Sequence record: PX969468.1
Length of the DNA: 64,000 nucleotides
Origin: a phage
Reading direction: 5' to 3' (one strand)
The notes below the pieces were generated by a model. The model was not told the DNA's origin. It searched no databases and saw nothing but the letters and a program-made list of their open reading frames with translations. The first letter of the stretch is position 1. Each line of letters opens with the position of its first letter. Position numbers and translations under genes: made by a program. This document shows, piece after piece, positions 31,413 through 62,008 of the stretch.

Positions 31413-31793
31413 ATGGAGCTTAAAGATTGGTGCATAATCACCTTTGTGTGGGACATTGACGGCTTTCCTGATCAAACCATGCGTGTTGTTTTAGACAATG
31501 AAACGTATGAAATGCGTATGCAATGGAATGAGAGGGATGAGTCCTGGTGGTTATCTCTTGGTCCAGTAGGTGACAGCCCTTTAGTAACCAGAAAAGTAAC
31601 AGCTTGTCAAGATATTTTAGACGGACTGCATTACAGAGATGATTTACCAAAAGGTAGACTGATGGCGCTGTCGTTTAAAGACGATCAATATTGGGGTAGG
31701 GTTGGAAGATATAACCTTGGGGCGAGATCTGAGCTACAGCTTGTATACGGCACCCCGGTTGATCTTTACAAGGAACAGCAAGGGTTAGAATAA
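31413..31793 (+). CDS. hypothetical baseplate protein
   Basis: 126 codons. Confidence 0.4.
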   Translation: MELKDWCIITFVWDIDGFPDQTMRVVLDNETYEMRMQWNERDESWWLSLGPVGDSPLVTRKVTACQDILDGLHYRDDLPKGRLMALSFKDDQYWGRVGRYNLGARSELQLVYGTPVDLYKEQQGLE

Positions 31794-32797
31794 TGGCAGA
31801 GTACAGACGTAGAACATGGCGATTATTGTTTGGTCGTCCGGTAGAGCATGGGGGTAAATCAAAAACCAATATCCCAAAATCTGTTGAAAAGAAAGGGGAT
31901 AGTGATTCCGGAGTTTATGAAGTTAGCTCAGACACTGGTGCTGCCAATATAGAGTTTGACATACAAAAGGACAATACCAAAGAGCCGAACAAAGGTTATG
32001 TGACAGTTTACAACCTGTCTGACGATACAGTTAACTATCTGGATATGCATCAGGCTGATGCCCTTGCAGTTATGTTTGAAGCTGGCTATGATAATGAGAA
32101 CCAGTTGATATTCTCCGGAACTGTGGAGTTTGTTGAAGACAGGTGGGAAGGTCCGACCAGAAAAACTAAGTTCATCTTTGGGGATGGTACTGAGAACATC
32201 ATTAAGTGCCAAAGCACAAGATCTTATCAGAAAGGCACACCTCTGAACTCTGTGCTTAATGACCTACTGAAGGATATGAACTTGCCAAAAGGTAGGGTTG
32301 TGGGTTTTGGAAACCAGACCCTGCAATACTCTATGGCTTTCTCTGGAAACACTGCAGAGAACCTCCGCAGGTTTGCAAGACTGACCAATTCAACATTTAG
32401 CGTTCAGGATGGAGCTTTGTATTGGACCAAGGTTGGAAAAAGGTTCAAAGACTCTGTGTTTGAAATAAGTGCAGAGTCTGGGATGCACGGATCGCCTACC
32501 CCTAAAAACCCAGAACCTGCTAAAAAACGAAAAGCTAAAGCTGCTGCCAAAGGTGGTTCGACATCTAAAAAGAAAAAGAAAAACCCGAGAGAGGATGTTG
32601 GTCTTACTGTAACCACATGCCTTAACGGAGCTATCCTCCCAGAGTCCACTATTTATCTTAAAAGCAAGCAATATACAGGCTTCTATAAGGTGATCACGGT
32701 GCATCATAAGGGCACCATAGAAGGCGGTGATTACACTACAGAGCTTGGCCTTGGGGAAACAGTGGGTGGAGTTGTTGACAAAACTGAGGAGGTATAA
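31793..32797 (+). CDS. baseplate hub-like protein (tentative)
   Basis: 334 codons; located immediately upstream of spike-like and gp25-like genes; Lys-rich internal segment. Confidence 0.3.
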   Translation: MAEYRRRTWRLLFGRPVEHGGKSKTNIPKSVEKKGDSDSGVYEVSSDTGAANIEFDIQKDNTKEPNKGYVTVYNLSDDTVNYLDMHQADALAVMFEAGYDNENQLIFSGTVEFVEDRWEGPTRKTKFIFGDGTENIIKCQSTRSYQKGTPLNSVLNDLLKDMNLPKGRVVGFGNQTLQYSMAFSGNTAENLRRFARLTNSTFSVQDGALYWTKVGKRFKDSVFEISAESGMHGSPTPKNPEPAKKRKAKAAAKGGSTSKKKKKNPREDVGLTVTTCLNGAILPESTIYLKSKQYTGFYKVITVHHKGTIEGGDYTTELGLGETVGGVVDKTEEV

Positions 32798-37515: not shown

Positions 37516-40500
37516 ATGGCTGATATTAAAGTTGTCAGAATTGAATCTCTTCCTGCCACTACCGCAGTGACAGAGGATGATTACCTGGTTGTTCAACAAC
37601 CAGACCTGACTCGTCGTGTAAAAATTGGCGATGTTGTCCATGTTGATGGGACTGTTTCTCATGTAATCTCCTTTAAGGAAGGTGGTAAGTTAAACGGCCC
37701 AATGGATTTTGCCTACTTCGAAGAGGAAGACCTCTACCTGCGTTGGAAAGGCGAATTTCCACACACTGTTCCTGCACTGTCTTCACCGTACTCCGATGGT
37801 GGGATTACTGACGCTGCATGGATGGTATATACAGATCCGTCCTTAAGGGAGGAGCTGGAATCTACCATTGGCGCATCTATGATCATGACAGCCGAAGGGC
37901 AGTCTGTCCAGGATGTAATGGATGTTACTGTTCAGACAGCTAACGATGCTAAAGCCCTTGCACAGCGTGTAGATTTTGGTACAGTGCACACTGTAGGCGA
38001 TGTTATTCACCTTGATAACTTTGTTGGCCCTGCAGTTATTGAAGAGGGAAGAACTACCAACTACCCTTCTGTAGCAGCTGGTGAAAAATTTCTGAATGGT
38101 GTGGTATCTCGTCGTGATACTACAACTGTTGATGGTATTTTCCGTGGCGCTACTTCAGGAGCCATGTATACCATTGCAGTAACCAACGGTGTGGCAACAA
38201 CAAAAAGAATAGCACTTCGTGATGAATTTAAACGCCTAGAGGCAAATACCCCAACAAGAACAGTTATCCGTGCTGGAGATGACTTAAACACGGCAGGGTA
38301 CTTGCAGCTTGACGCAACAGGCCGTTGGGGCATGTGGAACCAACAAACAGCCTCGTGGCAACCTCTTGCTATAGAGCAAGGCGGTACAGGTGCCAGGGAT
38401 GCCGCAGGTGCACGCATTAACTTGGGGGCTTTCTATAAGCAACGTGCAGCCCTTGAGCCAAATTTCAATATCAATAACTTGACTGGTAATCAGGATGGTG
38501 TATACTACCAACCGATGACTGCTTATGCAACCGAGGCAAATGGTTACCCTGCAGGTTCTGGTGCTGGTCACTTGATTGTTTGGCAGAACAATGCTAACGG
38601 CGGTACAGGTTGTCGTCAGGAATACTATCCATTCTCTAACGTAGATGTTTGGTATTTGAGAACCTATCAGGCCAACACAAACCAGTGGACTGCATGGCAG
38701 CCGATGGTCAGACCTCGTAACGATGATACCTTTAGATCGCACATCGGTCTTGGGCCTAGAAATACCCCTACCTTCGGGCACCTTTACCTGTCTCAAAGTT
38801 CTGCTGATGTTAAGTCGGCATCAGGTATTGTTAACGGGGACAAATACAGTGCTGACGGTGTCCTTGAGCACGGGTATAGGATCTACTCTGAAGTAAGAAA
38901 CGACAATAAGGCTTGGTTGACAATCCACCTACACAAAGGTGCAAAAGGATCTGAAACTCATAGATATTTGGGTTTCCGCGAAGACGGTGTATTAGACTGC
39001 CCTAAATACATGCAGGTTGGGGATCTTACTGGTCAGCTGACAAACTGGGGACTTGGAGAGTGGATCCGTAGTTCAGGGGCAGAAAGAGGCTTCTGGGGGT
39101 CTAAGAAAGCCGCCAAGATGGTTGTCTGGGATGGTGGGATGGACGAATCCGGTAACGGCACTCTGGAATGGGGTGTTTATAACAACCGGAAGGCCAAGTG
39201 GGAACCTTTACCTCAAGCCGCAGGCGGCACTGGGGCTACAACTTTAGCAGATGCTCAGAATCTGTTCAAAGTTCCTATAGCAGCAGGTGTAAAAGACTTC
39301 TTGACACTGCCAAGAACCGCAGGGATGGAAGATGGGAAATACTACCCAATTATCGTTAGAACAGATCCGTATTACGCCCCTTCGACAGGTACAGATATTA
39401 CCATAGTCACCAGGTCTTCATCTGGAAATGACCCTATGAACTGTGCCACCCTGCAGTGTCACTATAGAACTGGTGGCTGGACGGACAGGGGAGACTCTTT
39501 CTACGGGGTAGTAAATTTCTACCAGAATGAAAAAGCACTTCTTGGGATGGTTGCTCCAACAAGGGGTAAACAAGAGTATGTTGCTTTCTATGTAGAGGCT
39601 CGTGCTTTCCCTGTCAGCATATACGCAAGTAGAAATGTTGTCGAAGTGTTTACCAGAGAGCAAGATTACCAGGTCGGGGCTGTAACAGACAATCAGGATG
39701 GGGTTAAGTTCGTTGCACCTCTTCAGTCAGCAGATTTGAATCTTGCTATTCTTGGAGATAACAACACCAATACCAGACCTATTGTTGACTTCAAAGGTAC
39801 TTCAGGGTTCTACACTGGTGGCGGCACACAGTGGCACTATATAGGCACTGCTGAGCGCTATGCTGTGATGAGCAAAATGAATATGCCAAAAGTCGAGCTA
39901 TGGGCAGACGGCCTTGACTATTTGTGCTACGGCAGTCCTAGAAAGGCGTTATTCTCTAATGCAGGATTCCAGTGTGCATCCGATGGGACAGAGGATCTGA
40001 CTAACGGTACGTTTACCTCTAAATGCGGTAATGGTGCTGGTCTCAAAGGTCAGGCAGAGTTCAGATCTACTCCAGAGGCTGGTCAAGTTATTGTTCGTGA
40101 TGTTGTAGGTTCTGCTCACAGATTCTACAACTTCAACAAAGATGGCACTTTCTCAGCTCCTGGTGGTTTTGTATGCCACACAGGTGCAGACTGGAACAAC
40201 CAGTTCGGGAATAACAACCCTTCTAAAATAATGGCTGGTAACGTCAACGGACCTGAAGGTTCCATGGTTGTAGCAGGGTTGTCGGTTGGTTTTTCTGGAA
40301 ACTACGCTTTCCAGATGGCAGGTCGTTTAGACCAGCTGTACACTCGTTCCATAGAGCAGGGAAACCACAGAGCGTGGAACAAAGTTATTCAGCACCGTGG
40401 TCAAGGGTTGGGAACTAATGACCTTAACGACTACAAAGGAGATAGAGAGGGTTTTTATCATCAGGAGGCCAATGCTCAAGCCGCACTTGATAGAAACTAC

Positions 40501-41316
40501 CCATGCTCTCAGGCAGGTACTCTCCTTGTCTATAGAAACTATGTCAACGTTCCAGAGAGTTGCGTACAGGAATATACAACATATCTTGGAGAAAAATTCC
40601 TGCGTTATGGAACAACGATAGGTGGTGTTTTCACATGGGGCCATTGGCAGCAGCTTGGCGGTAAGGGTATCACTTTAAAAACTCAAGGGTCCAATCTTGA
40701 ACCTGAGTTCACAATACACACAGGTGGTGGTACTGATGTTACCAACACTTCGAACATGCCTTCTAATACAGGCAGGTTGTACTATTGGGGTGATGGCGCT
40801 GATAGGAAGAATGTGTTTGAGTTTCAGATAAGTGATAACTCAACAGCCGCCAGCTGGGTATTCCACTGCGGAGCTAAGGCAGATGAGGCTAAATCAAGAT
40901 ATTTTGCTGTCAACGGCACGGTAGAATGTACCACTGTTAGCCAAAGTTCCGATAGAGACCTGAAGGATAATATAGAGGTCATACCTAACGCTCTGGAAGC
41001 AATTAGAAAGATGAAAGGCTATACCTACACCTTGAAAGAGAATGGTATGCCTTATGCAGGCGTGATTGCTCAAGAGGTTATGGAAGCATTGCCAGAGGCA
41101 GTAGGATCTTTCGTGAAAAGGAAGGAAATAGAAGGTCCTACTCAAGACGGTATTCCTCTGATGACCGAGGAAAGGTTCTATAACGTTGACTACGCAGCTG
41201 TAACAGGCTTGCTTGTCCAGGTTTGCAGGGAACAGGACGATAAAATAACCGCCCTTGAGGAGCAGGTTAAAAAATTGACAGAGGTTGTTACTGGATTGCA
41301 AGAGAAACTGAAGTAA
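37516..41316 (+). CDS. long tail fibre with C-terminal intramolecular chaperone (peptidase S74-like) domain
   Basis: 1266 codons; C-terminal ...SQSSDRDLKDNIEVIPNALEAIRKMKGYTYTLKENG... followed by coiled coil, matching self-cleaving chaperone domains of phage fibres. Confidence 0.6.
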   Translation: MADIKVVRIESLPATTAVTEDDYLVVQQPDLTRRVKIGDVVHVDGTVSHVISFKEGGKLNGPMDFAYFEEEDLYLRWKGEFPHTVPALSSPYSDGGITDAAWMVYTDPSLREELESTIGASMIMTAEGQSVQDVMDVTVQTANDAKALAQRVDFGTVHTVGDVIHLDNFVGPAVIEEGRTTNYPSVAAGEKFLNGVVSRRDTTTVDGIFRGATSGAMYTIAVTNGVATTKRIALRDEFKRLEANTPTRTVIRAGDDLNTAGYLQLDATGRWGMWNQQTASWQPLAIEQGGTGARDAAGARINLGAFYKQRAALEPNFNINNLTGNQDGVYYQPMTAYATEANGYPAGSGAGHLIVWQNNANGGTGCRQEYYPFSNVDVWYLRTYQANTNQWTAWQPMVRPRNDDTFRSHIGLGPRNTPTFGHLYLSQSSADVKSASGIVNGDKYSADGVLEHGYRIYSEVRNDNKAWLTIHLHKGAKGSETHRYLGFREDGVLDCPKYMQVGDLTGQLTNWGLGEWIRSSGAERGFWGSKKAAKMVVWDGGMDESGNGTLEWGVYNNRKAKWEPLPQAAGGTGATTLADAQNLFKVPIAAGVKDFLTLPRTAGMEDGKYYPIIVRTDPYYAPSTGTDITIVTRSSSGNDPMNCATLQCHYRTGGWTDRGDSFYGVVNFYQNEKALLGMVAPTRGKQEYVAFYVEARAFPVSIYASRNVVEVFTREQDYQVGAVTDNQDGVKFVAPLQSADLNLAILGDNNTNTRPIVDFKGTSGFYTGGGTQWHYIGTAERYAVMSKMNMPKVELWADGLDYLCYGSPRKALFSNAGFQCASDGTEDLTNGTFTSKCGNGAGLKGQAEFRSTPEAGQVIVRDVVGSAHRFYNFNKDGTFSAPGGFVCHTGADWNNQFGNNNPSKIMAGNVNGPEGSMVVAGLSVGFSGNYAFQMAGRLDQLYTRSIEQGNHRAWNKVIQHRGQGLGTNDLNDYKGDREGFYHQEANAQAALDRNYPCSQAGTLLVYRNYVNVPESCVQEYTTYLGEKFLRYGTTIGGVFTWGHWQQLGGKGITLKTQGSNLEPEFTIHTGGGTDVTNTSNMPSNTGRLYYWGDGADRKNVFEFQISDNSTAASWVFHCGAKADEAKSRYFAVNGTVECTTVSQSSDRDLKDNIEVIPNALEAIRKMKGYTYTLKENGMPYAGVIAQEVMEALPEAVGSFVKRKEIEGPTQDGIPLMTEERFYNVDYAAVTGLLVQVCREQDDKITALEEQVKKLTEVVTGLQEKLK

Positions 41317-41415: not shown

Positions 41416-42006
41416 ATGTTTTTATGGGAAAGGCCTAGATACCTTCCAGATATTAGATTGGAGCTGCTGGCAGATATTGTTACGTTTAAAAGTCCGTTTA
41501 CAGGTAAAACGCAAAAAGTGACCTATGCCACACCTAACTGGAAAGGCACTTTGACGGTTTCCAATATCAGCGAGTCACAGCTGCTAGAGCTTAAGAGCTT
41601 TGTTGATCAGGTGTATAAAGATGGGAACATTTTTCTTATTAAAACGTACGGTCACTCAGTAACAGCTAATGAGCCAATCGCCCTTGGGCCTACTGGTAAC
41701 GACGATTTTTTGAAGACGGTCGGATGGGAGCCAAACAGAGACATAGCCAGAGCTGGGGATAAAATATCTGTCAATGATGAATTGAAAGTGGTAACAGCTC
41801 CAGTGCGCAGCGATGGTGTTGGGTCTGCTGTCATAAGCATATCCCCAAGACTTAGAAAACCTATTGCCGCAGGGGACACTATGAAGATAATAACTCAATC
41901 CCCAAAGGGTAGGTTTCATATCAGAGATATTTATAAAATTAAGCAAAAAGTCGATGCTATGCAAAAAGGTGATAATATAGTTATCAACTTCTTTGAGGAT
42001 TTCTAA
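41416..42006 (+). CDS. tail tip/baseplate assembly protein (tentative)
   Basis: 196 codons; GGAGG RBS; first of three small genes preceding the J-like gene. Confidence 0.35.
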   Translation: MFLWERPRYLPDIRLELLADIVTFKSPFTGKTQKVTYATPNWKGTLTVSNISESQLLELKSFVDQVYKDGNIFLIKTYGHSVTANEPIALGPTGNDDFLKTVGWEPNRDIARAGDKISVNDELKVVTAPVRSDGVGSAVISISPRLRKPIAAGDTMKIITQSPKGRFHIRDIYKIKQKVDAMQKGDNIVINFFEDF

Positions 42007-42007
42007 G

Positions 42008-42559
42008 ATGATTAGAGCGCCATTAGATAATTTATTTCTTGAAAAGCTGGAGCTTGATAGTGTTGAGATCTTAATTGCTGCAAAGCTAGAGCTACCAACA
42101 GGTACTGTCAGGGTGTGCTCAGGAACTGGTGTTGTGGTGATTGAGGGGCAACATTTTATAGGGATAGGTGGATCAGCAACATTGACCGCTGTGTCTGAGA
42201 AAGATGCCACCAACTTCGGGTCTGTGGTAGCAACATTGAACGGGTTTGATCCAAAGTATGTAGGTGATCTGCTGAAGACGGAGTATTCGGGTTGTCGTGC
42301 CACGTTGTATATCACAGCTATGGAGAATGGTTTACCTGTTACAACCAATGGCTTGTTTGACGGCCTTATAACAGACATGGCTATTCAGACAGGGGAGAAT
42401 AGTGCTTTGTCCATATCCATATCTTCCATCTTCAACAGCTGGTTAAGAGGTTTTCCTTATCGGTACACAGAGGAGAGCCATAGCTCAAGAAACGATAATG
42501 ACAGATTTTTTAAATATGTGGATCAGGTGGCAAGCCGCCCGATCATTTGGGAGGTTTAA
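42008..42559 (+). CDS. tail tip/baseplate assembly protein (tentative)
   Basis: 183 codons from ATG just after upstream stop. Confidence 0.35.
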   Translation: MIRAPLDNLFLEKLELDSVEILIAAKLELPTGTVRVCSGTGVVVIEGQHFIGIGGSATLTAVSEKDATNFGSVVATLNGFDPKYVGDLLKTEYSGCRATLYITAMENGLPVTTNGLFDGLITDMAIQTGENSALSISISSIFNSWLRGFPYRYTEESHSSRNDNDRFFKYVDQVASRPIIWEV

Positions 42560-42984
42560 TGAGCACACACCCTCGTTTAGTGGACTGGCAAGAAAGATTG
42601 TGGAAAGTGTTTGACGAAGAAGCCACCGTCCCGTTTGAATGGGGATTCCACGATTGCTGCACTTTTGCGGCTAAGTGTGTTGATGCCCAATACGGAACAG
42701 ATTTTCTTTCTAACTTTGAAGGAACGTATAAAACAGAGTTGGAAAGCAAGAGATGGTGCATGCTTCGTTTCAAAACCACACATCTGCCTACTATTTTTGA
42801 TCTCTTTTTGACTCGATTGGATACTCCTAAACAGGTTCAGCGTGGTGATATTGTTATTTTCGAAGGTCTGAACGGGCTCACCGCTGGTGTGTTCTGGAAC
42901 AACCAGATTTGGGCGAAAGGTGATAAAGGGATCTTTATGTTCGACATGAAAGATTCTATCGTTGTTGATGTCTGGAGGTATTAA
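42559..42984 (+). CDS. tail assembly protein with Cys-containing FHDCCTF motif (tentative)
   Basis: 141 codons from Met with GGAGG RBS; motif WGFHDCCTFAAKC; position immediately before J-like gene. Confidence 0.35.
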   Translation: MSTHPRLVDWQERLWKVFDEEATVPFEWGFHDCCTFAAKCVDAQYGTDFLSNFEGTYKTELESKRWCMLRFKTTHLPTIFDLFLTRLDTPKQVQRGDIVIFEGLNGLTAGVFWNNQIWAKGDKGIFMFDMKDSIVVDVWRY

Positions 42985-45900
42985 TGCCAATTGCAATGAT
43001 TGATAACATCGTTGCTTCTGCAAGATCTTCGAGCTATGACTGGAACGCATCCAAGGCAGCTCTGGCTGACAGCCTGAACACTGTTACCACCAGAACCCTT
43101 GATAAGATTTTCGAAGGCAACAAATCTTACAGAAGTCAACAAGATAGACAAAAACTTCTCAGATCTTCTGCTGCACCTTGCTCTGTAGTATATGGGAAGA
43201 CACGTACATCTGGATTGCTTGCGTTTTTAGAGCAGGACAGGGACAGAACCCTTCATTGTGCTATTGTTCTTGCCAATCATCCCTTGGAAGGTATAGAAGA
43301 TATACTTATCGACGGTAATCCTATTTCCTCGTATGGGGATTTGGTATCGTGGGAGTTGCATAACGACAGGAAAACCTCTGATCCTTTCATGGGCACACAC
43401 TGCCCTTCGTGGTCACCAGACATGATAGGTAGAGGGATCAGTTGGCTACGTGCCAGCTTTAAGTTTGACCCTAACAAGTTTCCTTTTGGGTTGCCAAACG
43501 TTACACTTGTCAAGGTTGGTAAAAAATGTTATGATCCTCGTATCAGTAAAGAGGTGTATACCAACAACGCTGCCTTGGTGATTCTGGACTATCTAAGAAC
43601 GTACCTTAAATGTCCTGACGAAACCATCAACTGGGAGTCCTTCAAGGAAGCTGCCAACATATGCGACGAGGCTGTAAAAAACGCGGACGGAACCAGTGAG
43701 CGCCGTTACACCATTAATGGTGAGTTCGACATGGACGAAGCACCAGCAAGTATTATGGCAGAAATGCTGAAGGCTTGTGGTGCAGATCTTAGCTATGTAG
43801 CTGGCAAATACGGTCTGCTGGTAGGTGCATACTATGGCCCGGCAACAATGACACTGAGTGAGGACTGTGTTTGCGGTGAGGTTAAGATCTATCCTGAAGC
43901 CTCCTTCGACAAAAGATCAAACACAATAACTGGGAGATTCACCAGTCCAACCAAAGGGTATTCTGAAACAGACTTCCCATCGGTGTTCGTACCTGAATGG
44001 GTAGAGAAGGACGGAGAAAGAAAGATAATTGATATAGATTATCGTTTTGTTACCAGTCCTTATCAGGCTCAGCGTGTTTCCGCAATATTCTTAAGACGTG
44101 CCAGAGCTGGCAGGATTATTGAAGTAACCTGCAATATGCGGGGTTTTAAATTTAAGCCTGGGCGTTACGTTACGATGGACCTCCCAAGTATTGGTATAGT
44201 GGGCCAAGAAATGAGGGTTCTTGAATGGGAGTTCACCAAAAAGGGCGGTGTCAAGGTAAAACTCCGTCAAGATGCTAAAGAGTGGAATGATGCCACAGGG
44301 CAACTTCCGGATTCTGGAGATGTGGATATTCCGATATCCCCGTCCGGTGTAGCTCAACCGCAAAACTTCAGATACTCTGTTCTTCAAGCTGGGGAAGTAA
44401 CTCATGGTGTTTTGGCTTGGGACAACGTTGGAACTTATGCTCAAAATATTGTGCAGGTAAGAAAGAACGGAGAGATTATTTGGACAGCGCAAACAGTCGA
44501 GCAGTTTGTCCGCGTAGAAGGATTGACCAAAGGGTCATATACAGCAACCGTGGTTGCAACATCTTATAAGGGTGGTGTATCTCCAGAAGCCTACTGCGAG
44601 TTCAACATTCAAGCACCTGAAGCTCCTGTTTCTGTAGAAGTTAAGCAGGGATACTTTGCTATCACCTTGATTCCGCACAGCAGGGACTTAGCAAGTGTAA
44701 GCACCCAGTATGATTTTTGGACATCTGGTATGACAAGGTTGCCTGACACAAGTGATGCAACCGTTACTTCAAAAGCCACCCGTATGGGTGTTGGTTCAAC
44801 TTGGACATCTGAAGGTCTGCAGAACGATAAGATTTATTATTGGTATATTCGAACCACAAACGCTTTTGGTAGTTCTCAGTTTGTAGAATGCGCTGCACGC
44901 TGCTACACCTCTATTGAAGATTTGATGCCTCAGATAGATGCTGAATTTAAAAAGACAGAAACTTATAAAGAGTTGATGAGCACTTTAGATTCCTCTATCG
45001 AGGAGGTTGAAAATCGTGTCATAGAGCTTAACAAGTACATGGACGGAAGGGTAGATGAGGCATTCCAACAACTTGGAGATAGGATAGGTGCGGTAGTTAC
45101 AGAGACAACTCAGAAGTTTGAGGATGTCAATGGAAATATCACAGCTCTGGATAGGAAACTTGTTGCTGCACAGAACAAGTTCACCAACGATCTGAACACT
45201 GAAAGTGGAAGACTGGCATCCCTGATCGAGACAACCAATAAAGCAACCACTGATCTTCTGAACAAAAAGACAGAGGCTTTAGACGAGAAATTGGTTGCAG
45301 CCAAAGGGGAGTTGGTAGAACAAATAAGTGGTGTGGAGAGCGGATACCTTGCCGGAGATAAAACTCTAGATGGCAAGATCAATACCCAGAGAACGGAACT
45401 TGATGCAAGCATCTTAAGCACCAACCAGGCGACAGTGGATCTTCTCAACAGGACATCTGAAACTCTGGATCAAAAGATCAGTCAGACAAACGCGACGGTA
45501 TCTAAGAACTATACCACCCTTGATGGTAAGATAACTACCGCAAAAACTGATCTCAATACCTTGATTGCCAATACCAACAAGGCCACCACAGATTTGTTGA
45601 ATCAGAAAACCTCTGCACTGTCGGAGCAGATAACTTCTGCACGTGGGGAAATTTCTACCAACAAACAGGCGATTAAGGATTTAGATGGGAAGCTGACCTC
45701 CACAAAAACAGCACTGGACGCTACAATCTCCGATACCAACAAAGCAACCGTGGATCTTATTAACGGCACAGCGTCAGCTATTCGTCAAGAACTTGCTGTT
45801 GCTAAGCAGGAGATCATTGATGATGTCGGTGATGTGTCAGAGCTTAGAGCTGCAGTAGCTACAACATCTAAGGCTGTGACAGACTTAGAGGGCAAAGTAA

Positions 45901-46823
45901 ATGCTCAATGGGGCACAAAAATACAGGTAGACTCCGCAGGGAATAAGTATGTGGCAGGTATCCAGTTAGGCATGGAAGGCTCTGGAGGCCAAGTTCAGTC
46001 ATATTTCATGGTTAGCGCAAACAACTTTGCGGTATACAACCCAGGCAATGGAACAGCAACCCTTGCTTTCGCAATCAAGAACAACCAAGCGTTCTTGAAA
46101 GACGCTTTTATAGAGAACGGCACGATCTCTTCTGCCAAGATCGCGCAAGAAATTTCGTCAAACAACTACGATGGCAATGGGTACCACAAATACGGTTGGT
46201 ATATTAACAAGAACGGGCACGCCCAGTTTATGGATGTGTGGGTGAAAGGTAACATCAACGCTAGTGCAGGTAACTTCACAGGGGCAGTTAACGCTACCAG
46301 TGGCACCTTCCGTGGAGATGTTTATGCCAACAATGGTAGCTTTAGAGGAACCATAGATGCAACAGGAGGTACATTCCGTGGACGTGTAGAAGCTTCCGTT
46401 ATCCGTGCTAACCAGTTCGAAGGTGCGATTGTTGCACACAGGACTTACGGAGATTGTGCTCCAGTATACAACTCCCAGCAAAGGGTTTGCCGTTGGAGGT
46501 GGAGATATGTAGATAACGTTTCAGGTCAGGGTAAGAACGTAACATTCTTCTTTAAACTGAATGGTACTCTTGCCAGCTCCCAGCTTAACGTTTGGATAGC
46601 CGGACATCAAATCCTTGCAGGCAAGAAGTACGGAAACGACAACAACGGCATGTGTGCGGTAGGGATAACAGGTCTTGGTGAACAAACTATAGACATTATC
46701 GTCGAGATTTACACACCATGGTCAACGTCAAGTGTGACAGGGGTTACAATATCTTGTCCAACCGTAATAGTTAGTCGTTCAAACTCTAGCCTCCAGGGAC
46801 CTTGGAACGAGTCTCATGACTAA
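42984..46823 (+). CDS. lambda J-like tail tip / host-specificity protein with internal tandem repeat region
   Basis: 1279 codons; segments QAPEAPVSVEVKQGYFAITLIPH and YVAGIQLGMEGSGGQVQSYFMVSANNFAVYNPGNG resemble conserved blocks of lambda J as recalled; central ~240-residue region of imperfect repeats (TNKATTDLLN...). Confidence 0.6.
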   Translation: MPIAMIDNIVASARSSSYDWNASKAALADSLNTVTTRTLDKIFEGNKSYRSQQDRQKLLRSSAAPCSVVYGKTRTSGLLAFLEQDRDRTLHCAIVLANHPLEGIEDILIDGNPISSYGDLVSWELHNDRKTSDPFMGTHCPSWSPDMIGRGISWLRASFKFDPNKFPFGLPNVTLVKVGKKCYDPRISKEVYTNNAALVILDYLRTYLKCPDETINWESFKEAANICDEAVKNADGTSERRYTINGEFDMDEAPASIMAEMLKACGADLSYVAGKYGLLVGAYYGPATMTLSEDCVCGEVKIYPEASFDKRSNTITGRFTSPTKGYSETDFPSVFVPEWVEKDGERKIIDIDYRFVTSPYQAQRVSAIFLRRARAGRIIEVTCNMRGFKFKPGRYVTMDLPSIGIVGQEMRVLEWEFTKKGGVKVKLRQDAKEWNDATGQLPDSGDVDIPISPSGVAQPQNFRYSVLQAGEVTHGVLAWDNVGTYAQNIVQVRKNGEIIWTAQTVEQFVRVEGLTKGSYTATVVATSYKGGVSPEAYCEFNIQAPEAPVSVEVKQGYFAITLIPHSRDLASVSTQYDFWTSGMTRLPDTSDATVTSKATRMGVGSTWTSEGLQNDKIYYWYIRTTNAFGSSQFVECAARCYTSIEDLMPQIDAEFKKTETYKELMSTLDSSIEEVENRVIELNKYMDGRVDEAFQQLGDRIGAVVTETTQKFEDVNGNITALDRKLVAAQNKFTNDLNTESGRLASLIETTNKATTDLLNKKTEALDEKLVAAKGELVEQISGVESGYLAGDKTLDGKINTQRTELDASILSTNQATVDLLNRTSETLDQKISQTNATVSKNYTTLDGKITTAKTDLNTLIANTNKATTDLLNQKTSALSEQITSARGEISTNKQAIKDLDGKLTSTKTALDATISDTNKATVDLINGTASAIRQELAVAKQEIIDDVGDVSELRAAVATTSKAVTDLEGKVNAQWGTKIQVDSAGNKYVAGIQLGMEGSGGQVQSYFMVSANNFAVYNPGNGTATLAFAIKNNQAFLKDAFIENGTISSAKIAQEISSNNYDGNGYHKYGWYINKNGHAQFMDVWVKGNINASAGNFTGAVNATSGTFRGDVYANNGSFRGTIDATGGTFRGRVEASVIRANQFEGAIVAHRTYGDCAPVYNSQQRVCRWRWRYVDNVSGQGKNVTFFFKLNGTLASSQLNVWIAGHQILAGKKYGNDNNGMCAVGITGLGEQTIDIIVEIYTPWSTSSVTGVTISCPTVIVSRSNSSLQGPWNESHD

Positions 46824-46830
46824 CAGTAAA

Positions 46831-46858
46831 GCCCCGCTTCGGCGGGGTTTATTTTTAT
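46831..46858 (+). terminator. rho-independent terminator
   Basis: stem CCCCGC/GCGGGG with TTCG loop then TTTATTTTTAT. Confidence 0.65.
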
Positions 46859-46865
46859 GCTCGGA

Positions 46866-46894
46866 TTGACTATTGTTACAAAATTTGGTAAAAT
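46866..46894 (+). promoter_or_regulatory. sigma70-like promoter TTGACT-17-TAAAAT with TGG extension
   Basis: read directly. Confidence 0.55.
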
Positions 46895-46927
46895 ACCTTG
46901 TAGAGATTTTCATACCGGAGGAGTGAC

Positions 46928-48418
46928 GTGGCTAAGTATGGATTGACAGAGGCTGGTTTCGTTATACCAACCCTAAATGACCTAATCGTTGAAACTAAGC
47001 AAAGCCTGATCCGTGCTTTTGGCGAAAACTTCAACGTACAGAGTAACTCCGTTGCAGATAAGCTGACCACTATCTTCAACGAGCGAGAGTATCAACTTAT
47101 TCTTATGGCAGCATCTGTATACGCATCGCAGACGCTGTATGGGGCAGAAGGTATTTACCTGGATGAGCTTCTTGGAAGACAGGGTATTTACCGAAGAGGC
47201 CGTTCTAAATCATCAGGTACCTGCCAGTTGACAATCAACACAACTGTGCCGTACAATATGATTTATGATTCCAAAACTTATACGCTGGACAGTGGCAACT
47301 TTGTTCTTAGCAACGATGTGCAGGTGGCGGGAAATCTTATTGCTCACAGAATAAACGCTCCAGACCTAAGAATTGGGAAATACAACTTTCAAATTACCAA
47401 CCAGACAGACGGAAGTATCAAAACAAAAAGTTTGGTTTTAACAGATAAGGCTCTGGACTCTTCTGATTTGCCAAGCTTTTACGGCGAGATTAAGCAATTC
47501 ATTGTCGATAATACAACCCTGCTGAATGATGATTTAATTCAGATAGATATGTTGACAGGGACGTTGTGGATAGGGTACAATTCGAATCTTGATCAGGTTG
47601 GACTTAATAGCAGGGTAGATTTCAGAGTATCCCCGATTGTAGGGGAAAGAACTATCACCCTAGATGTTATCGCTAACGAGGCTGGTGAGCTGTCAAGAGA
47701 GGCAGAAACCGTGACAACAATGTCACCTACTCCCAGCGGATTTATCAAGCTTACCAACCGAGAAAGATTCAATGAGGGTAGGGATGTTGAGAAAGACTCT
47801 GAGTATCGCTTAAGAGCTTCCAGCACTAAACAGCTGACATCTAAAGCTACCCGTCCTGCAATCCTTAGCGCTGTAAGCGAGGTGAAAGGTGTTGAAAAAG
47901 TAAGAGTGTTCTCTAACAACACCGATAAAACGGATGTGAAAGGTATACCACCTTATAAGTTTCAAGTGGTGGTGTTTGGTGGTGCAACAGAGGATATCTG
48001 TCAGGCGCTGTATCAAACCATAGCTTGCACAAACAGAACTTATGGGAATATCTTCTACGATATTACCACATCAGACGGTCAGACTGAAAGGATTTATTAC
48101 TCCAAGGCAAATACCTACCGCCTAGATGTAAGAATTACCTACTCAGGTGCTGCGCTTTCCACAACCGAAAAAGATGCCATTGTAGAGGCTCTTTTGCAGG
48201 TTGTTAACGGACTGGATGTTGCAGATACGTTGTACAATATCCAATTGGTTGGTGCTGCATCGGCTGCTGTGTCAATAGGCAGATTTAACAGACTTGTAAT
48301 TCAAGTCAAACCTGTGGGGGCCTCTGATGAAGCTTACACTACAAACGATATTGTTGCAAACATGACTGAGGTGTTTGACCTAGACGAAAGTAATATAACT
48401 TTCCAACAAACTATTTAA
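46928..48418 (+). CDS. baseplate/tail structural protein
   Basis: 496 codons; GTG start with GGAGG RBS. Confidence 0.4.
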   Translation: MAKYGLTEAGFVIPTLNDLIVETKQSLIRAFGENFNVQSNSVADKLTTIFNEREYQLILMAASVYASQTLYGAEGIYLDELLGRQGIYRRGRSKSSGTCQLTINTTVPYNMIYDSKTYTLDSGNFVLSNDVQVAGNLIAHRINAPDLRIGKYNFQITNQTDGSIKTKSLVLTDKALDSSDLPSFYGEIKQFIVDNTTLLNDDLIQIDMLTGTLWIGYNSNLDQVGLNSRVDFRVSPIVGERTITLDVIANEAGELSREAETVTTMSPTPSGFIKLTNRERFNEGRDVEKDSEYRLRASSTKQLTSKATRPAILSAVSEVKGVEKVRVFSNNTDKTDVKGIPPYKFQVVVFGGATEDICQALYQTIACTNRTYGNIFYDITTSDGQTERIYYSKANTYRLDVRITYSGAALSTTEKDAIVEALLQVVNGLDVADTLYNIQLVGAASAAVSIGRFNRLVIQVKPVGASDEAYTTNDIVANMTEVFDLDESNITFQQTI

Positions 48419-56380: not shown

Positions 56381-59300
56381 ATGCTTCCAATCCCTTTGCT
56401 AAAACTTGGTCGTCATTTCCTCGATAAGAGGGGTGGAGTTAAGGAACTTGCTGTTCTGTCATACCCAATAGACAACAGTGACGGTACAAGCACTACAGTG
56501 CCATATGTAAATAGCTTAGCCATACTTTTTGACGACGGTCAACTCAATATTACAGGTTACAACAGGTTCGGGGAGTGCAGGACTGGAGATCTTGACACGA
56601 TAAACTACCCAAATGAGGCTGCCTGGAACGTTGATCATGTGTGGAGAGCAGACCGTGCGTTTGTGATCCGAACTTTTGATAATCAGTTTTTCTACATCGG
56701 CTGCACTGCAGGGCTTATTGGATCTGATGCTGCAGGTGGTAATGATGTTTGTGTAAGGGAGTGGACACCTCTTCCTGAACAGATTGTTAAAGGGTTGCAC
56801 CTTGACACCCACCCGGAGCGCCTTGTTGAGGTGATGGGTGGTATTAACAACACTGTCTGGGTTATTGCAGAGGCAGAAGGCACAGGCATACTGAATCTGT
56901 ATGGGTCTGGTAACAACACCTACGGATCTTTGCATGTAGATAAAAATCAGCATGCAACCCCTGTAAAGATCGGTGAGACATCGGAAAATCCTGAAACAGG
57001 CCCTTGGAAAAACCCAAGCATTAACTGCGAGGTGCATGACAACTCTGTTATTTTCGGTGGTCCTAGAGGTTTCTGGATTGCTGGATACGACTTTCTGAGA
57101 AATAACAGTAGAAACGACCTTGTTTGGCCTCCTGTGCAGATTACTCGTAACGATTTGAGAGGCATTCCTGCAGATGAGGAGTGGAAAGGGTTTATGTGTG
57201 GTCCTAACGGGGCAATAATTGCCACACAGAGGATGCACAAACCTAATGACCAGCAGCTTGTTAACGTATTCTACGGGCAAGACGTCTGGGGAGATGACAC
57301 ATGGCGTTCCTTAAATATCACCTACACCCATGAGGTGATAATGGCTCGTGGATACGGCACAAGTGGCATTTTCTTCAATAATGGCACTAAGCAGTATCGT
57401 GGGTTCTCTCGCAACTTGTGTAATGATATTGGTGCACAATCTGCAAACAATAGCCCTAGGGCCAATTTTATCCACTATCAAGCTCTTGCTACAGCTAAAT
57501 ATGTTGAGCAACGCCTGCCAGTTAGCTGGACAGAGAGTGTTTATTTCCAAGGCATCCACAGAGAAGGTTTCTTAGGGACCTTTACTGTTGTTAATGGTAA
57601 ACTTTGGTGGTCAGGCATCCCGAGGGGAAGTTTTGCAGGATCTAACAACCTGTTTGGCGGCAGACTTAATAGTCAGGGGTTCACAGAGGTTCCTGAGAAT
57701 TGGTATAAAAATGTCCCAGTAGACAGTTGGGGTGTTGATGATATTTTCGATGTTAACGGTGTTAGCAGCGTTAGCAATATCTACATTGGTGACACGGTCA
57801 AGATGAAACTGAAGCCTCAGCCAGAGGGGGCTACGTTCATTATTGACAAAATTGAACTGGTAAATGCTGCAGGCACGGTTGTTACAGATGCAAATTACCA
57901 ATTCTCCACCAACTGGAACCACGGTGGGGCCAACGAAGTTGTTGTTACCCAATATAACAGAAATGTTAACAGACGTGGACTGTACTCTGTAAAAATAACC
58001 TATCATGACAAACATGGCACAGGCAGAACCCACACAACAAGGACTTTGAACTGGAACACTATCGTCCCAGCGTACCCGTCTGATGGTAAATGGCATACTG
58101 TCGGTAGAAACAAACAGTTCCATGTCAACGATACTGTATACTTTGGGTTGAATGCCGCCCAGCCTGCAGTAGAAGGGGATACATCGTATATGGTCAGACT
58201 CCATAGAATGGATGCTGGATCAGTAACTTATGATGTTACTCAAGAGATTTATAATCAGCGACGAAATACCTATGATAACTTGGTGCAGACACAGGCCTTA
58301 TGGGAGTTCAACCCAAACGGCAGAGGTGGTAAAATGTTGCAGGTCAATGAACAAAACTGGACATCGTTGACTGTTCACGAACACCAAAACCCTTGGCCTG
58401 ATCCTGGAAAACCTAACTCTGGTGCTCGTACACTGAAAATTGTCAGCCATGATGTAGGGTATTTCGGAATACGCTGGGAAGCTACAGTAAGATATGCTGA
58501 TGGGACAACAAACAACATAGGGATCACTCTTGGTGGCACTAGTGAGGATAACTCACTGAAAATTGCCTACACCCCTAGAGGCATCTCTATTGACAATATG
58601 GATGTTGTTCGCAACGGTTACGGCGATGTGAATGTCAAAGTTACTCTTGGCGAACATCTTGGTGGGGAAAGGATCATCATGTATGCCTTTGATCATGACC
58701 CTCGCACCAATGGAACCTATGCAGACCAAGCATGGAGTTACCTGATAAGCGCACCTGAGCCAAATACTAAAGAATTCTACTATGGTATGAAGCGAGATGT
58801 GTGCAAGAAAACAGGAACACATGACTGGATTGCTATCTGCGTTAAAGATGAGCGCACAGCTTGGGATGAGCCTGTTAACAGATGGTTCATAGGTATTCCT
58901 ACCAGAAGTGATAAGTATGTCGCAGAGTATATTGTATGCATGGGCGGTACCAACCTGAACATGTGTTGGAACGAAGATGTAAACAAATACTCTGATTATG
59001 ACTATATGAGGGATTACTCTTGCAATCTGTGGTTTAACCAAACTACAGGTTACCCTCCGCGTCAGGCAAGGGTAAATCCTGCAATCTTTACAGATACTCA
59101 GGTTTTCTTGACAAAACAGGCCAACGAGGTTCAGACCTTCAAGAATAAATACGATCCTAACAAGTGGTTCTACAACTGTTACGGCGCATTTTTCTGGGGC
59201 CCTGGTGAGTTACCTGGTGGAGGATCTTGCTTGAATGAGGCAACTTACGCCAGTGACTACATCATGGGGCAGGTCAAGAAGTATAAGATAATTCCCGGTC

Positions 59301-62008
59301 CTGAAACTCTGGGTAATGCCGTTGACCCTTATATCATCATGACTGCACTGAGATCCAACATGGACGGGACATCCATGTCTATGCAAATTCCGGTAACAAA
59401 CGGGTACAAACGTGTTGTGATGATCATTAAGTGCGACTTAATAGGTAAACAAGTTCTTGCAGAAAACGGGACATCCACACATCCTTTTGAGGTTGCTCTG
59501 CACTATCAGTTTGCTGACTCACCTTTTGCAGGCGATAAGAGAATATCTGATACAGATGCACAGCGTTGTAAGAAAGTATTGTTGGGTGCAGGTTGGTGGT
59601 GGTATGAGTTTGATTTAACAGACAAATTCACCGACACGTCTAAAGTTGTAACAGGACTTCGTCTAGACCTTGGTGAGAACATGCACAAAGCTGTTTGTGA
59701 TGGCACCTATGGTGACCCTACAATATACCTAAAATATATTTCTTTTGAGCATCCGGAAGATGTTGTCTACGGTCCAAAACTGAGATTGTTTGGCAGTTGG
59801 ATTGCAAAAGATAGGGTAGGGATGGGTAAGAAGGTGAGAGGGTTCTTGGTTGATGCAGGAACAGAAGACATGCTGGTTAATGCAGTATGGCCTGAATTAC
59901 CCGGGACTCAGTGGAACAACTCAGCCAAATCTATAAACTGGTTTAACATTCATAGAGCCATGTGGACCACCAACTGCTACTTGTGGAGAGAGCTTAACGA
60001 TCAGGCCTTTGGCTTCAGCGATGGTAGAAGGATGGCGATCATTTGCTGGACAACACTGCAAAGATGTTATGACCATGACTACGAGATTGGGGGCAGGGCA
60101 TGGAAAAATATCAGGGACAGAATCATAACCAATTTTGCAGACGACAACGGTGGTGGAGCACATAACTTTGGCACAAGCCGACTCATCCATTTGAACGGAT
60201 CCTCAGCCTACAAGAAAGAAGGTTACTCTGGGTCTATGATCGAGTGGGGTCTGGTGAAAGATGCTCGCGTATTGATGGGCCAGCAACTTGCTGCCGCAAT
60301 AGGTCCCAGCGCAGTGCAGTCGGTTAAACCAGCGTGGTTCGATATTCCAATATGGTCATCTGGAACACCAGGAACTGCTGCAATCAATCCTACTACCGGG
60401 GATCTGGAAATCTCTTGGGAGGACTTGAAGCAGGTTGGGGGCTGGGATAAGACAGGGTACCAGGTGCAATGGTGGAGGTCTGACGGATCGTTAGCTGCTG
60501 ATGAGTTTGTTAAGGACAACTTCTACACCATGCCCTCTGCAAAAGCACAACAACTGTTCGGTCAGTCTACCCCGTCAACGATCACCATGTCCATGTGCTG
60601 TAAAGACAACAGGACTGGAGCTTTGGGCCCAAGGGTTGCTAAAGTTTTCTCAGGTATCAAATGGAATCTTCCTGTTCAAAGTGTTGCATGGAAGCAAATA
60701 GGCGATAACAAGCTGCTAGTTACCCCAGCTTGTCAGTTCAACGCAACTCTTAACGTTGATCCTGCTGTTGCGGCAAACTCAGCTAAAGCTTCTGACTTCT
60801 CTGTGTCTAACACTGCCATGGCAGATGTGAGGAAGATTGACACGCTGAACGCCAGAATTACCTGTAAAAACACTTATGGCACATTTCAGATCATCAACAA
60901 CTTCACAGACGCGGATTCTAAGGTAGTGAGGACAGCAAGCCAGACTCTGAGTTTAGGAACTCTGGCCTATGCGGCCCTGATCACTGAACAGTCAGCAACA
61001 CTCCAAGGGGGTGGTGTAGGCAAGTCCATTACAACACCTGTGTGGAAGCCAAATGAGTGGGTTGTGTTTGATTTGACCGTGGACTTCTCCAGCGATAATA
61101 ACTGGACATGGGTAAGGAATTGCTTGTCACAACTGATGGGTGGTCCAAGCTCCGTTAGTGATAGCCACTACTCCACTGACCCGAGTGTGTTTCAGGTGGG
61201 TAAAACTCACCCGGAGACTGGAGCAACGTTGCCTGACAGGAAGTATGCTTTGGTTTGCATCTCTTACGGGAAGGCAGATGTCACCTTCTCAGGGACACAC
61301 ACTTATAACGGAACCTACAACTTCTCAAGGAAGTATAGTCTCAAAGCAGGGAACATTATAGACGAGGTTGGTGTGCTGTATAATCCTGGCAACGGCATAG
61401 GGATTGTGGGCGGTAAACTGCAGATGCAGGAACCTTCTATTACCCCTTCCAACGTATCCGGGATTAGAAAGACTTGGGAAAGTAGTAATACCAACATTGC
61501 AACAGTGGATGCCACCACAGGGCTGGTAACATTTAAAGCTACTGGGAATGTCACCATAAAGTTTGTAGTTACAGATGATGCAGGCCGCAAAACGTCTTCA
61601 ACATCGTTTACTGTCAGACAGATGGCACCTCAGTGGTTTATTTGGGAAGGAAATCCTCTTGACGGGGCTTACCCTAGACCTGCAGGAACGTCCAATATGA
61701 GGGTCTTTACCGGTCCGGTCATGAACAATCCGACCACAACCACCAACCCTACATTTTTTGGTGCTTACATACCTGAAATTATTGGCCTACCAAGGAACCA
61801 GATACAACTGCTTTTCGGAGCAGGTGTTGATGGTCTAGCCACTTTTGGGTACAGTGACAACATTGATGCAGCCAGAAGCTCGGGTTGGATTGGATTTAAG
61901 TTTCAGTGGAACCCTGGTGGTAGAACATTAGGTGTTGCAAGCATAGGTGTTATGCTACCTGGTGACCAGCAATACCATCTCGAAGCTTATACAAACTTCC
62001 CTAGTTAA
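56381..62008 (+). CDS. very large virion-associated protein (putative receptor-binding/tail protein) with Ig-like domain
   Basis: 1875 codons, uninterrupted; N-terminal repeats with YGSGNNTYGSLHVD-type motifs (propeller-like, tentative); C-terminal segment SITPSNVSGIRKTWESSNTNIATVDATTGLVTFKATGNVTIKFVVTDDAGRKTSSTSFTV typical of bacterial Ig-like domains. Confidence 0.5.
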   Translation: MLPIPLLKLGRHFLDKRGGVKELAVLSYPIDNSDGTSTTVPYVNSLAILFDDGQLNITGYNRFGECRTGDLDTINYPNEAAWNVDHVWRADRAFVIRTFDNQFFYIGCTAGLIGSDAAGGNDVCVREWTPLPEQIVKGLHLDTHPERLVEVMGGINNTVWVIAEAEGTGILNLYGSGNNTYGSLHVDKNQHATPVKIGETSENPETGPWKNPSINCEVHDNSVIFGGPRGFWIAGYDFLRNNSRNDLVWPPVQITRNDLRGIPADEEWKGFMCGPNGAIIATQRMHKPNDQQLVNVFYGQDVWGDDTWRSLNITYTHEVIMARGYGTSGIFFNNGTKQYRGFSRNLCNDIGAQSANNSPRANFIHYQALATAKYVEQRLPVSWTESVYFQGIHREGFLGTFTVVNGKLWWSGIPRGSFAGSNNLFGGRLNSQGFTEVPENWYKNVPVDSWGVDDIFDVNGVSSVSNIYIGDTVKMKLKPQPEGATFIIDKIELVNAAGTVVTDANYQFSTNWNHGGANEVVVTQYNRNVNRRGLYSVKITYHDKHGTGRTHTTRTLNWNTIVPAYPSDGKWHTVGRNKQFHVNDTVYFGLNAAQPAVEGDTSYMVRLHRMDAGSVTYDVTQEIYNQRRNTYDNLVQTQALWEFNPNGRGGKMLQVNEQNWTSLTVHEHQNPWPDPGKPNSGARTLKIVSHDVGYFGIRWEATVRYADGTTNNIGITLGGTSEDNSLKIAYTPRGISIDNMDVVRNGYGDVNVKVTLGEHLGGERIIMYAFDHDPRTNGTYADQAWSYLISAPEPNTKEFYYGMKRDVCKKTGTHDWIAICVKDERTAWDEPVNRWFIGIPTRSDKYVAEYIVCMGGTNLNMCWNEDVNKYSDYDYMRDYSCNLWFNQTTGYPPRQARVNPAIFTDTQVFLTKQANEVQTFKNKYDPNKWFYNCYGAFFWGPGELPGGGSCLNEATYASDYIMGQVKKYKIIPGPETLGNAVDPYIIMTALRSNMDGTSMSMQIPVTNGYKRVVMIIKCDLIGKQVLAENGTSTHPFEVALHYQFADSPFAGDKRISDTDAQRCKKVLLGAGWWWYEFDLTDKFTDTSKVVTGLRLDLGENMHKAVCDGTYGDPTIYLKYISFEHPEDVVYGPKLRLFGSWIAKDRVGMGKKVRGFLVDAGTEDMLVNAVWPELPGTQWNNSAKSINWFNIHRAMWTTNCYLWRELNDQAFGFSDGRRMAIICWTTLQRCYDHDYEIGGRAWKNIRDRIITNFADDNGGGAHNFGTSRLIHLNGSSAYKKEGYSGSMIEWGLVKDARVLMGQQLAAAIGPSAVQSVKPAWFDIPIWSSGTPGTAAINPTTGDLEISWEDLKQVGGWDKTGYQVQWWRSDGSLAADEFVKDNFYTMPSAKAQQLFGQSTPSTITMSMCCKDNRTGALGPRVAKVFSGIKWNLPVQSVAWKQIGDNKLLVTPACQFNATLNVDPAVAANSAKASDFSVSNTAMADVRKIDTLNARITCKNTYGTFQIINNFTDADSKVVRTASQTLSLGTLAYAALITEQSATLQGGGVGKSITTPVWKPNEWVVFDLTVDFSSDNNWTWVRNCLSQLMGGPSSVSDSHYSTDPSVFQVGKTHPETGATLPDRKYALVCISYGKADVTFSGTHTYNGTYNFSRKYSLKAGNIIDEVGVLYNPGNGIGIVGGKLQMQEPSITPSNVSGIRKTWESSNTNIATVDATTGLVTFKATGNVTIKFVVTDDAGRKTSSTSFTVRQMAPQWFIWEGNPLDGAYPRPAGTSNMRVFTGPVMNNPTTTTNPTFFGAYIPEIIGLPRNQIQLLFGAGVDGLATFGYSDNIDAARSSGWIGFKFQWNPGGRTLGVASIGVMLPGDQQYHLEAYTNFPS

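Follow-up and report, generated by a model that had tools for sequence, protein, structure and literature searches.

A repeat region was analysed in a 64,000-nucleotide (nt) stretch of phage DNA (sequence record PX969468.1; hereafter the window), which represents an rV5-like Vequintavirus, a myophage of Escherichia coli. The region is held by an open reading frame (ORF) at 42984-46823 on the plus strand, which encodes a J-like fibre or tip attachment protein of 1279 amino acids (aa) orthologous to gp37 of phage rV5; all features described within this gene lie on the same strand. The reading we favour, with a probability of about three in four, is that the repeats make up the middle of a long alpha-helical stalk belonging to a gp37-like fibre, in which they constitute a modular spacer existing as old and stable cassette alleles.

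The protein contains four diverged repeat copies, marked by the core T-N-(K/Q)-A-T-(T/V)-D-L-(L/I)-N, which begins at aa 751, 813, 864 and 918 (nt 45234, 45420, 45573 and 45735), with spacings of 62, 51 and 54 aa. The core motif and pairwise alignment delimit unit A (aa 720-793; 45141-45362), with the core TNKATTDLLN at 45234-45263 and a glycine-rich tail at its end, unit B (aa 794-844; 45363-45515), with the core TNQATVDLLN at 45420-45449, unit C (aa 845-898; 45516-45677), with the core TNKATTDLLN at 45573-45602, and unit D (aa 899-966; 45678-45881), with the core TNKATVDLIN at 45735-45764, which continues into the conserved end of the stalk. Together, the four units span 45141-45881. Smith-Waterman local alignment of the units against each other gave z scores of 9.4-14.9, and none of 300 composition-preserving shuffles reached the observed score, whereas the stretches before aa 720 and after aa 966 showed no match to the units in local alignment. 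This approach replaced a blastp comparison of the J-like protein with itself, which returned only the diagonal. Autocorrelation of the protein under a BLOSUM matrix peaked at lags of 51, 54, 62 and 105 residues, and also at 7, 11, 18, 22, 29, 33, 40 and 44.

A preliminary description of the region, made from the letters of the DNA and its translations, had placed imperfect repeats of a ~20-residue unit at 45120-45850 (aa 713-956). These coordinates cover the repeats well and the three peptides quoted as examples are present in the ORF at aa 748-770, 861-883 and 915-937, but the fourth copy, ILSTNQATVDLLNRTSETLDQKI at aa 810-832 in unit B, had been overlooked. The repeat unit itself is about 44-62 aa long, with a basic module of 44 aa, and not ~20; the quoted 23-residue peptides are its best-conserved cores. 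Nucleotide repeats mirroring the protein repeats had also been described, but these are weak: the 30-nt cores are 70-80% identical to each other, and the units in a 44-codon frame share 47-58% DNA identity and an exact run of at most 10 nt. Tandem Repeats Finder reported no repeat in 44000-47000, because the DNA copies are too diverged.

That the region forms a long helical stalk with coiled-coil periodicity, as had been proposed, is well supported. The stalk occupies aa 644-976 (44913-45911), as delimited by AlphaFold2, the hydrophobic period and alignment to lambda J, and is the positional equivalent of the alpha-helical shaft of lambda J. In an AlphaFold2 run that used no alignment, helices were predicted for aa 644-657, 659-784 and 792-976 with a predicted local distance difference test score (pLDDT) of 55-80, against a pLDDT below 50 for the tip domain. 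The pattern of leucine, isoleucine, valine, methionine and phenylalanine over aa 645-975 gives a single sharp spectral peak at 3.62 residues, with a power of 6.1 compared with a maximum of 2.0 in 500 shuffles, and only one of the 331 residues is a proline. The composition is biased, with 45 threonines, 35 leucines and 33 alanines among these 331 residues. Taken together, the 3.62-residue period and the autocorrelation lags indicate that heptads are mixed with 11-residue hendecads.

Alignment of 13 units from three alleles, described below, defined the module consensus and its hendecad register. The consensus, L..kl......L..lI..TNkaTtDLlN.kteAl...l..a.ge, comprises 44 aa, or four hendecads, with hydrophobic residues at positions a and e of all four. 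All 13 units share six invariant residues, namely T at position h, N at i, T at a, D at c, L at d and N at f, yielding the core TNxxTxDLxN. The unmodified 44-aa spacing is found in the alleles of phages ECP32 and FFH2, and the modules of the window carry extensions of 7, 10 and 18 residues that keep the helical phase, the resulting spacings of 51, 54 and 62 aa each lying close to an integral number of turns of a helix with a 3.62-residue pitch. No TNxxTxDLxN module was found outside Vequintavirus proteins among the sequences examined.

The sole predicted break in the helix, at aa 785-791, falls in the glycine-rich segment GVESGYLAGDK (aa 783-793; 45330-45362), which also lies within the 18-aa gap of the FFH2-type allele. 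This segment may be a hinge, an assignment of low confidence because the 4/7 hydrophobic spacing runs on through the predicted break. Weak Pfam matches of the stalk to apolipoprotein-like amphipathic helices (E = 0.018, far below the cut-off) were also considered and rejected, because the stalk has no proline punctuation and is bracketed by the two ends of the lambda shaft.

The label "J-like" given to the gene in the preliminary description is correct on the strength of its domain and profile matches. In Pfam, Ig_J_second (PF24489) matches aa 547-652 with 105.8 bits (cut-off 27) and Phage_Tail_Tip (PF09327) matches aa 957-1097, after the shaft, with 131.5 bits (cut-off 22), while Ig_J (PF24421) reaches a sub-threshold 24.1 bits (cut-off 29) over aa 493-545, covering profile positions 52-104 only. 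In PHROGs, the protein matches phrog_31, "central tail fiber J", with E = 6e-163, the match beginning at aa 143. No N-terminal hub domain was found in the Pfam search; for gp37 of rV5, an HHpred match to the Mu-type hub 3CDD has been reported (PMC3606486). The same study describes rV5 as a myovirus and detected gp37 (1279 aa) in the virion proteome (PMC3606486). At the DNA level, the gene is 98.2% identical to that of Escherichia phage B9-1 and 92.8% identical to ORF 37 of rV5 (megablast), and all 117 megablast matches were to Vequintavirus-type genomes of ~135-140 kb.

The stalk is preceded by two immunoglobulin (Ig)/fibronectin type III (FNIII)-like domains (aa 493-652; 44460-44939), assigned from Ig_J and Ig_J_second and aligning with lambda J 666-845, and is followed by the Phage_Tail_Tip domain (aa 957-1097; 45852-46274), the start of a beta-rich distal fibre, which aligns with lambda J 844-990, residues 987-1147 of the F2 pyocin fibre, and the J protein of phage T1. 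Two phmmer searches against PDB sequences provided the structural alignments. In the first, lambda J 666-845 aligned with aa 497-679 and lambda J 844-990 with aa 957-1115; in the second, lambda J 830-925 aligned with aa 943-1038. Residues 809-861 of lambda J form an alpha-helical shaft, in which three helices are bundled in the stretch from FNIII-2 to the beta-prism (PMC11101478), and both ends of this shaft align here, 809-845 with aa 643-679 and 830-861 with aa 943-975, leaving ~277 additional residues. Since lambda J aligns on both sides of the insertion, the stalk corresponds to the lambda shaft with ~277 residues inserted mid-way. Like the lambda J shaft (PDB 8iyk, 8xcg; PMC11101478), it lies between the second FNIII/Ig domain and a beta-prism tip domain; however, the lambda shaft has ~53 residues compared with ~330 here, the 44-aa module has no lambda counterpart, and the phage here, a myovirus, possesses a baseplate hub of its own.

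Residues 987-1147 of the F2 pyocin fibre align with aa 873-1039 (phmmer, E = 3.7e-9), and further PDB matches were to 9l9p, identified as phage T1 J (PMC11945409), and, weakly, to the P22 gp26 needle. F-type pyocin central fibres (F7 residues 921-1083; F2 PDB 25vf; PMC12874032) likewise have a long helical J-like stalk directly before a Phage_Tail_Tip-type prism, and an 11-residue periodicity is common to their coiled coil and the stalk of the window. However, the stalk described here is twice as long as the 163-residue coiled coil of F7, it belongs to a contractile tail, and docked side fibres are a feature described for F7. Among the matches listed in a metagenome scan, which included at least one Vequintavirus and at least seven siphovirus contigs and was used as an outgroup, the closest relatives outside Vequintavirus were J-like proteins of ~60-kb siphovirus contigs (Nonagvirus/Queuovirinae-like; L012-L018; SE1, ESCO3). 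Their FNIII and tip domains are 63-72% identical to those of the window and both stalk ends are shared, DLMPQIDxEFKKTETYKEL opening the stalk and TSKAVxDLEGNVNAQWG closing it, yet their stalks are just 78 or 114 aa long and lack the TNxxTxDLxN module.

Copy number differs among the relatives compared, as the earlier idea of a stalk of changeable length had implied. The best 120 protein clusters were all 1279 aa long and 98-100% identical, and further alleles were obtained by tblastn against phage genomes, with the loci fetched and translated; a scan of IMG/VR gave 3 loci. Three classes were found: an FFH2-type allele of 1199 aa with 3 core motifs, an rV5-type allele of 1279 aa with 4, to which the window belongs, and an ECP32-type allele of 1381 aa with 6 (ECP32 and VB-EcoM-WM). 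The alignment of the three alleles is near-invariant up to ~aa 665 and from ~aa 978, and every length difference falls inside the stalk. Relative to the window, the FFH2 stalk shows differences of -4, -18, -11 and -47 aa, and the ECP32 stalk carries insertions of 14 aa (two heptads) and 88 aa (exactly two 44-aa modules). The three N-terminal ECP32 units, which lie 44 aa apart, are all nearest to unit A of the window (66-77% aa identity), and the remaining units are orthologous to B, C and D (93, 77 and 82% aa identity). The 6-copy allele thus represents an in-register triplication of unit A, and the 88-aa insertion is what in-register unequal exchange would be expected to produce. The duplicated ECP32 units are nonetheless only 62-64% identical to each other in DNA.

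In a census of 116 genomes of a phage collection, 43 carried the FFH2-type, 13 the ECP32-type and ~60 the rV5-type allele. No length variant occurred within any class (43 of 43, 13 of 13 and ~60 of ~60 genomes), the spans being constant apart from 1-nt differences that resemble sequencing errors and a few slightly truncated alignments.

Comparison between classes outlines a divergent allelic cassette. Against the 6-copy allele it covers aa 680-929 (45021-45770), and against the 3-copy allele it extends over ~aa 665-978, both delimited by a drop in DNA identity and by saturation of synonymous sites. In sliding windows, DNA identity to ECP32 is 95-100% in the flanks compared with 62-79% over aa 680-929, and identity to FFH2 is 90-95% in the flanks compared with 49-69% over aa 665-978, with sharp edges in both cases. 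Within the allele (the window against rV5 or L006), Nei-Gojobori estimates of the ratio of nonsynonymous to synonymous divergence (dN/dS) are 0.02-0.04 for the stalk, which is under constraint equal to that on the flanks (~0.013). Between alleles, the proportion of synonymous differences (pS) in the stalk is ~0.75, that is, saturated, while the synonymous divergence (dS) of the flanks is 0.07-0.47; synonymous saturation is confined to the cassette. The two flanks of the window have a dS of 0.16 and 0.07 to ECP32, as against 0.36 and 0.35 to rV5, although its stalk is of the rV5 type, and this incongruence indicates that the cassette has been exchanged by recombination in the flanks. On these divergence patterns, the stalk alleles are old, conserved and mobile as units, and do not behave as an actively slipping repeat.

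A coherent account of the structure, role and evolution of the stalk can be proposed on this basis. The stalk would retain both conserved ends of the short helical shaft of lambda J, between which the 44-residue, four-hendecad module has probably been multiplied, giving four copies in the window. It is most likely a trimeric coiled coil, by homology and in view of the structures of lambda J and F7 pyocin and of RBPseg multimer models. Each module would add ~6.5 nm, and the stalk, if helical, would set the distance from the hub and FNIII domains to the distal tip, which for 3, 4 and 6 copies would be ~38, 50 and 65 nm. Copy number was probably altered long ago through in-register duplication and deletion, and the three resulting alleles are now stable under strong purifying selection, being exchanged intact between Vequintavirus genomes through homologous recombination within the near-identical flanks of the gene. 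The repeats and their period, the helical character, the placement relative to lambda J, the three length classes, the limits of the cassette and the pattern of selection are direct results of the analysis, and the trimeric state, the rigidity, the lengths in nanometres and any effect on host recognition are what we infer in this account.

Several observations weigh against the account of a spacer stalk. The structure prediction is for a monomer without an alignment, with a mean pLDDT of 57 and a predicted template modelling score (pTM) of 0.27, and only two positions per hendecad are strongly hydrophobic, so that the core is weak for a rigid rod. Of the invariant residues, N, D and N face the surface, and their conservation exceeds what a passive spacer would need. 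In addition, the phage has a separate baseplate hub, which leaves "reach" without a defined reference point for gp37, and no phenotype is tied to the 3-, 4- or 6-copy alleles.

Among the alternatives, a broader functional proposal is that the module is not a passive spacer and that its invariant polar node instead marks either docking sites for accessory fibres or a helix that refolds on contact with a receptor, in which case a contractile phage would have taken up a siphovirus-type tip set as a length-tunable sensing fibre, with alleles tuned to different surface layers of the host. We consider this speculative and unlikely, and its two components can be weighed separately.

In the first, the stalk would be a metastable coiled coil that turns into beta-prism on receptor contact, the repeats adding stored energy or extension. 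The stalk takes the place of the lambda shaft, which flips and partly becomes beta-sheet on binding LamB (PMC11101478), aa 873-1039, which include its distal part, align with the F2 pyocin fibre, and the 163-residue coiled coil of F7 pyocin refolds to beta-prism with a motif period of 11 residues (PMC12874032), as in the stalk here. The corresponding motif, SxSxxMxxLxS, scanned with a loose implementation of our own, is borderline in aa 873-975 (z = 2.2, with 20 of 500 shuffles reaching the observed count), but it is not enriched in the repeat region, with z = 0.8 over the whole stalk and z = 1.0 over aa 794-975 and two unit hits before aa 921, compared with z = 2.8 in the F2 fragment and z = 3-6 in many other J-like stalks. 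Hydrophobic spacing is 4/7 here rather than the 3/8 implied by the motif, a contractile tail does not need such an energy source, and lambda and T5 lack an extensive switch according to the authors of the pyocin study (PMC12874032). Because the motif is unenriched and the spacing is 4/7 rather than 3/8, the repeat region is a poor candidate for fold switching, and we regard this explanation as distinctly unlikely; the conserved C-terminal end of the stalk might act like the lambda shaft.

In the second, the invariant polar node of each module would bind another fibre or an adaptor, and copy number would set the count of accessory fibres. In F7 pyocin, the central coiled coil has a short acidic stretch on which three sets of trimeric side fibres sit (PMC12874032). 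The residues T, N, T, D and N do not vary among the 13 units, which come from alleles saturated elsewhere, and Vequintavirinae encode about nine annotated fibre proteins (PMC12143355). However, genomes with 3, 4 and 6 copies share neighbouring structural proteins at 97-100% identity, so copy number matches no change in the encoded set of partners. The strongly variable gp41-like fibre does not follow the stalk allele, and the fibres of phi92, a relative with a solved structure, attach to wedge proteins. We regard a docking platform as quite improbable.

The preliminary description had suggested that recombination between repeats could change the length of the stalk and hence the reach of the fibre. 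As a contingency repeat, in which present-day recombination or slippage between copies often alters stalk length and rapidly varies fibre reach, this would fit the copy numbers of 3, 4 and 6 among Vequintavirus alleles and the ECP32 insertions of exactly two modules and of two heptads. Yet the units, at 47-58% DNA identity with no more than 10 identical bases in a row, escape Tandem Repeats Finder, even the duplicated ECP32 units have diverged to 62-64% identity, none of the 116 genomes departs from its class length, and the best 120 protein clusters share one length. Stalk synonymous sites are saturated between classes, and variation is found solely between classes that diverged anciently. 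The short shared runs, the absence of within-class variants and the synonymous saturation all argue that length changes rarely, and ongoing change of this kind, which we consider highly improbable, is largely refuted. A compositional artefact, in which low sequence complexity with an abundance of Thr, Leu, Ala, Asp and Lys only gives the look of a repeat, would draw on the biased composition (T 45, L 35, A 33 of 331) and on Pfam matches that are only weak and to generic coiled-coil or apolipoprotein families, but it is already refuted by alignment scores that 0 of 300 composition-preserving shuffles reached, by a ten-residue core that recurs in register and by clear orthologues of the units in other alleles (77-93% aa identity).

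Coiled coils of variable length have already been described in J-like fibres, and the stalk of the window is an expanded, modular version of a known shaft. Among 63 diverse J-like representatives with both flanking domains, the linker between the FNIII and tip domains ranges from 46 to ~2,500 aa, running from 46-49 aa (lambda type) through 77, 103 and 135 to 329 (the protein of the window), 618 aa and beyond, and linkers of ~84-620 aa mostly show a clear period of 3.5-3.66 residues. Three other J-like proteins, which are unrelated at the module level (P0167, P0157 and P0213), have internally repeated coiled-coil segments, with 2-4 alignments of a fragment of the F2 pyocin stalk to each of them, so that internal duplication may be a common route of stalk growth in the J-like family.

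Independent modelling in the RBPseg atlas gives a fibre of Vequintavirinae large coiled-coil domains and an N-terminus of the central-fibre type (PMC12143355). Class TC5, a Vequintavirinae/Tempevirinae pair, and class TC9 combine such an N-terminus with a coiled coil whose length varies and a C-terminus that is beta-helical, as here; no 44-aa module, copy-number alleles or cassette exchange are described in the text consulted, and the Vequintavirinae member of TC5 may be the J-like protein of the window (PMC12143355). The atlas phages Bas49 and Bas54 (Vequintavirinae) carry proteins 99% identical to this protein. In the BASEL collection, only three large fibre genes vary between Vequintavirus genomes (PMC8594841, S5C Fig legend), and the same three vary among the phages compared here. 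By position, one of the variable stretches in BASEL probably corresponds to the J-like gene; however, the gene was treated there as a lateral fibre, and its variation was neither localised to the stalk nor tied to copy number (PMC8594841).

The finding leaves the understanding of the J-like protein family unchanged. What it provides is a concrete picture of how fibre length changes, in which a phase-preserving 44-residue module is added or removed while both stalk ends remain fixed. Three alleles, of 3, 4 and 6 modules, circulate among otherwise near-identical E. coli phages, and vequintaviruses serve as broad-host-range therapeutic and model phages. The natural allele series is a ready system for relating stalk length to adsorption through O-antigen and capsule layers, and the allele junctions are defined sites for engineering fibre length.

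Public records name orthologues of the J-like protein inconsistently, as "omp-alpha outer membrane protein alpha precursor", "lateral tail fiber protein with fibronectin type III domain", "tip attachment protein J", "putative baseplate component" or "hypothetical protein"; the first of these names probably goes back to nothing more than coiled-coil composition. In addition, ~18 GenBank records (MG0656xx) titled "Campylobacter phage", with Campylobacter jejuni as host, contain the J-like gene with 92-99% identity in Vequintavirus-sized genomes, and their host labels look unreliable.

In its genomic setting, the J-like gene forms part of a siphovirus-style set of tail-tip genes within the fibre and baseplate cluster of a contractile phage (41416-46823, together with 31793-32797 and 46928-48418). 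The set comprises genes for a Dit-like protein (phrog_1302), a tail protein (phrog_2048) and a DUF6950 protein, followed by the J-like gene, and the phage encodes in addition a baseplate hub of its own (phrog_196), together with a Baseplate_J wedge gene. The arrangement typical of lambda, in which the protein tips a non-contractile tail and its gene comes after Dit- and L/K/I-type genes, does not apply to this phage, which is a myovirus (PMC3606486). The structure paper on its relative phi92 reports an ordinary hub and spike and describes no J-like protein. The DUF6950 ORF (42547-42984) ends on the base at which the J-like ORF starts, which suggests translational coupling, and the two genes upstream likewise overlap (41993-42006 and 42547-42559).

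Other parts of the cluster are also variable. The other gene to vary strongly, at 37516-41316, encodes a fibre of 1266 aa, a gp41 homologue that carries Tail_spike_N as well as a Peptidase_S74 chaperone domain; it is 87-95% identical among the compared phages, with FFH2 covering only 83% of it. Among these phages, neighbouring fibre genes showed no co-variation with the stalk allele. A third variable structural gene (56381-62008) encodes an Ig-like-domain protein of 1875 aa, a homologue of rV5 gp27, which is 92-94% identical compared with 97-100% for its neighbours. Within the J-like protein, a second and milder variable patch occupies aa 1161-1279 (46464-46823), the extreme C-terminus and presumed receptor-binding end. 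It shares 83-86% DNA identity with ECP32, has a dS of 0.87 compared with 0.07 in the adjoining segment, and shows the highest dN/dS of the gene (0.05-0.075).

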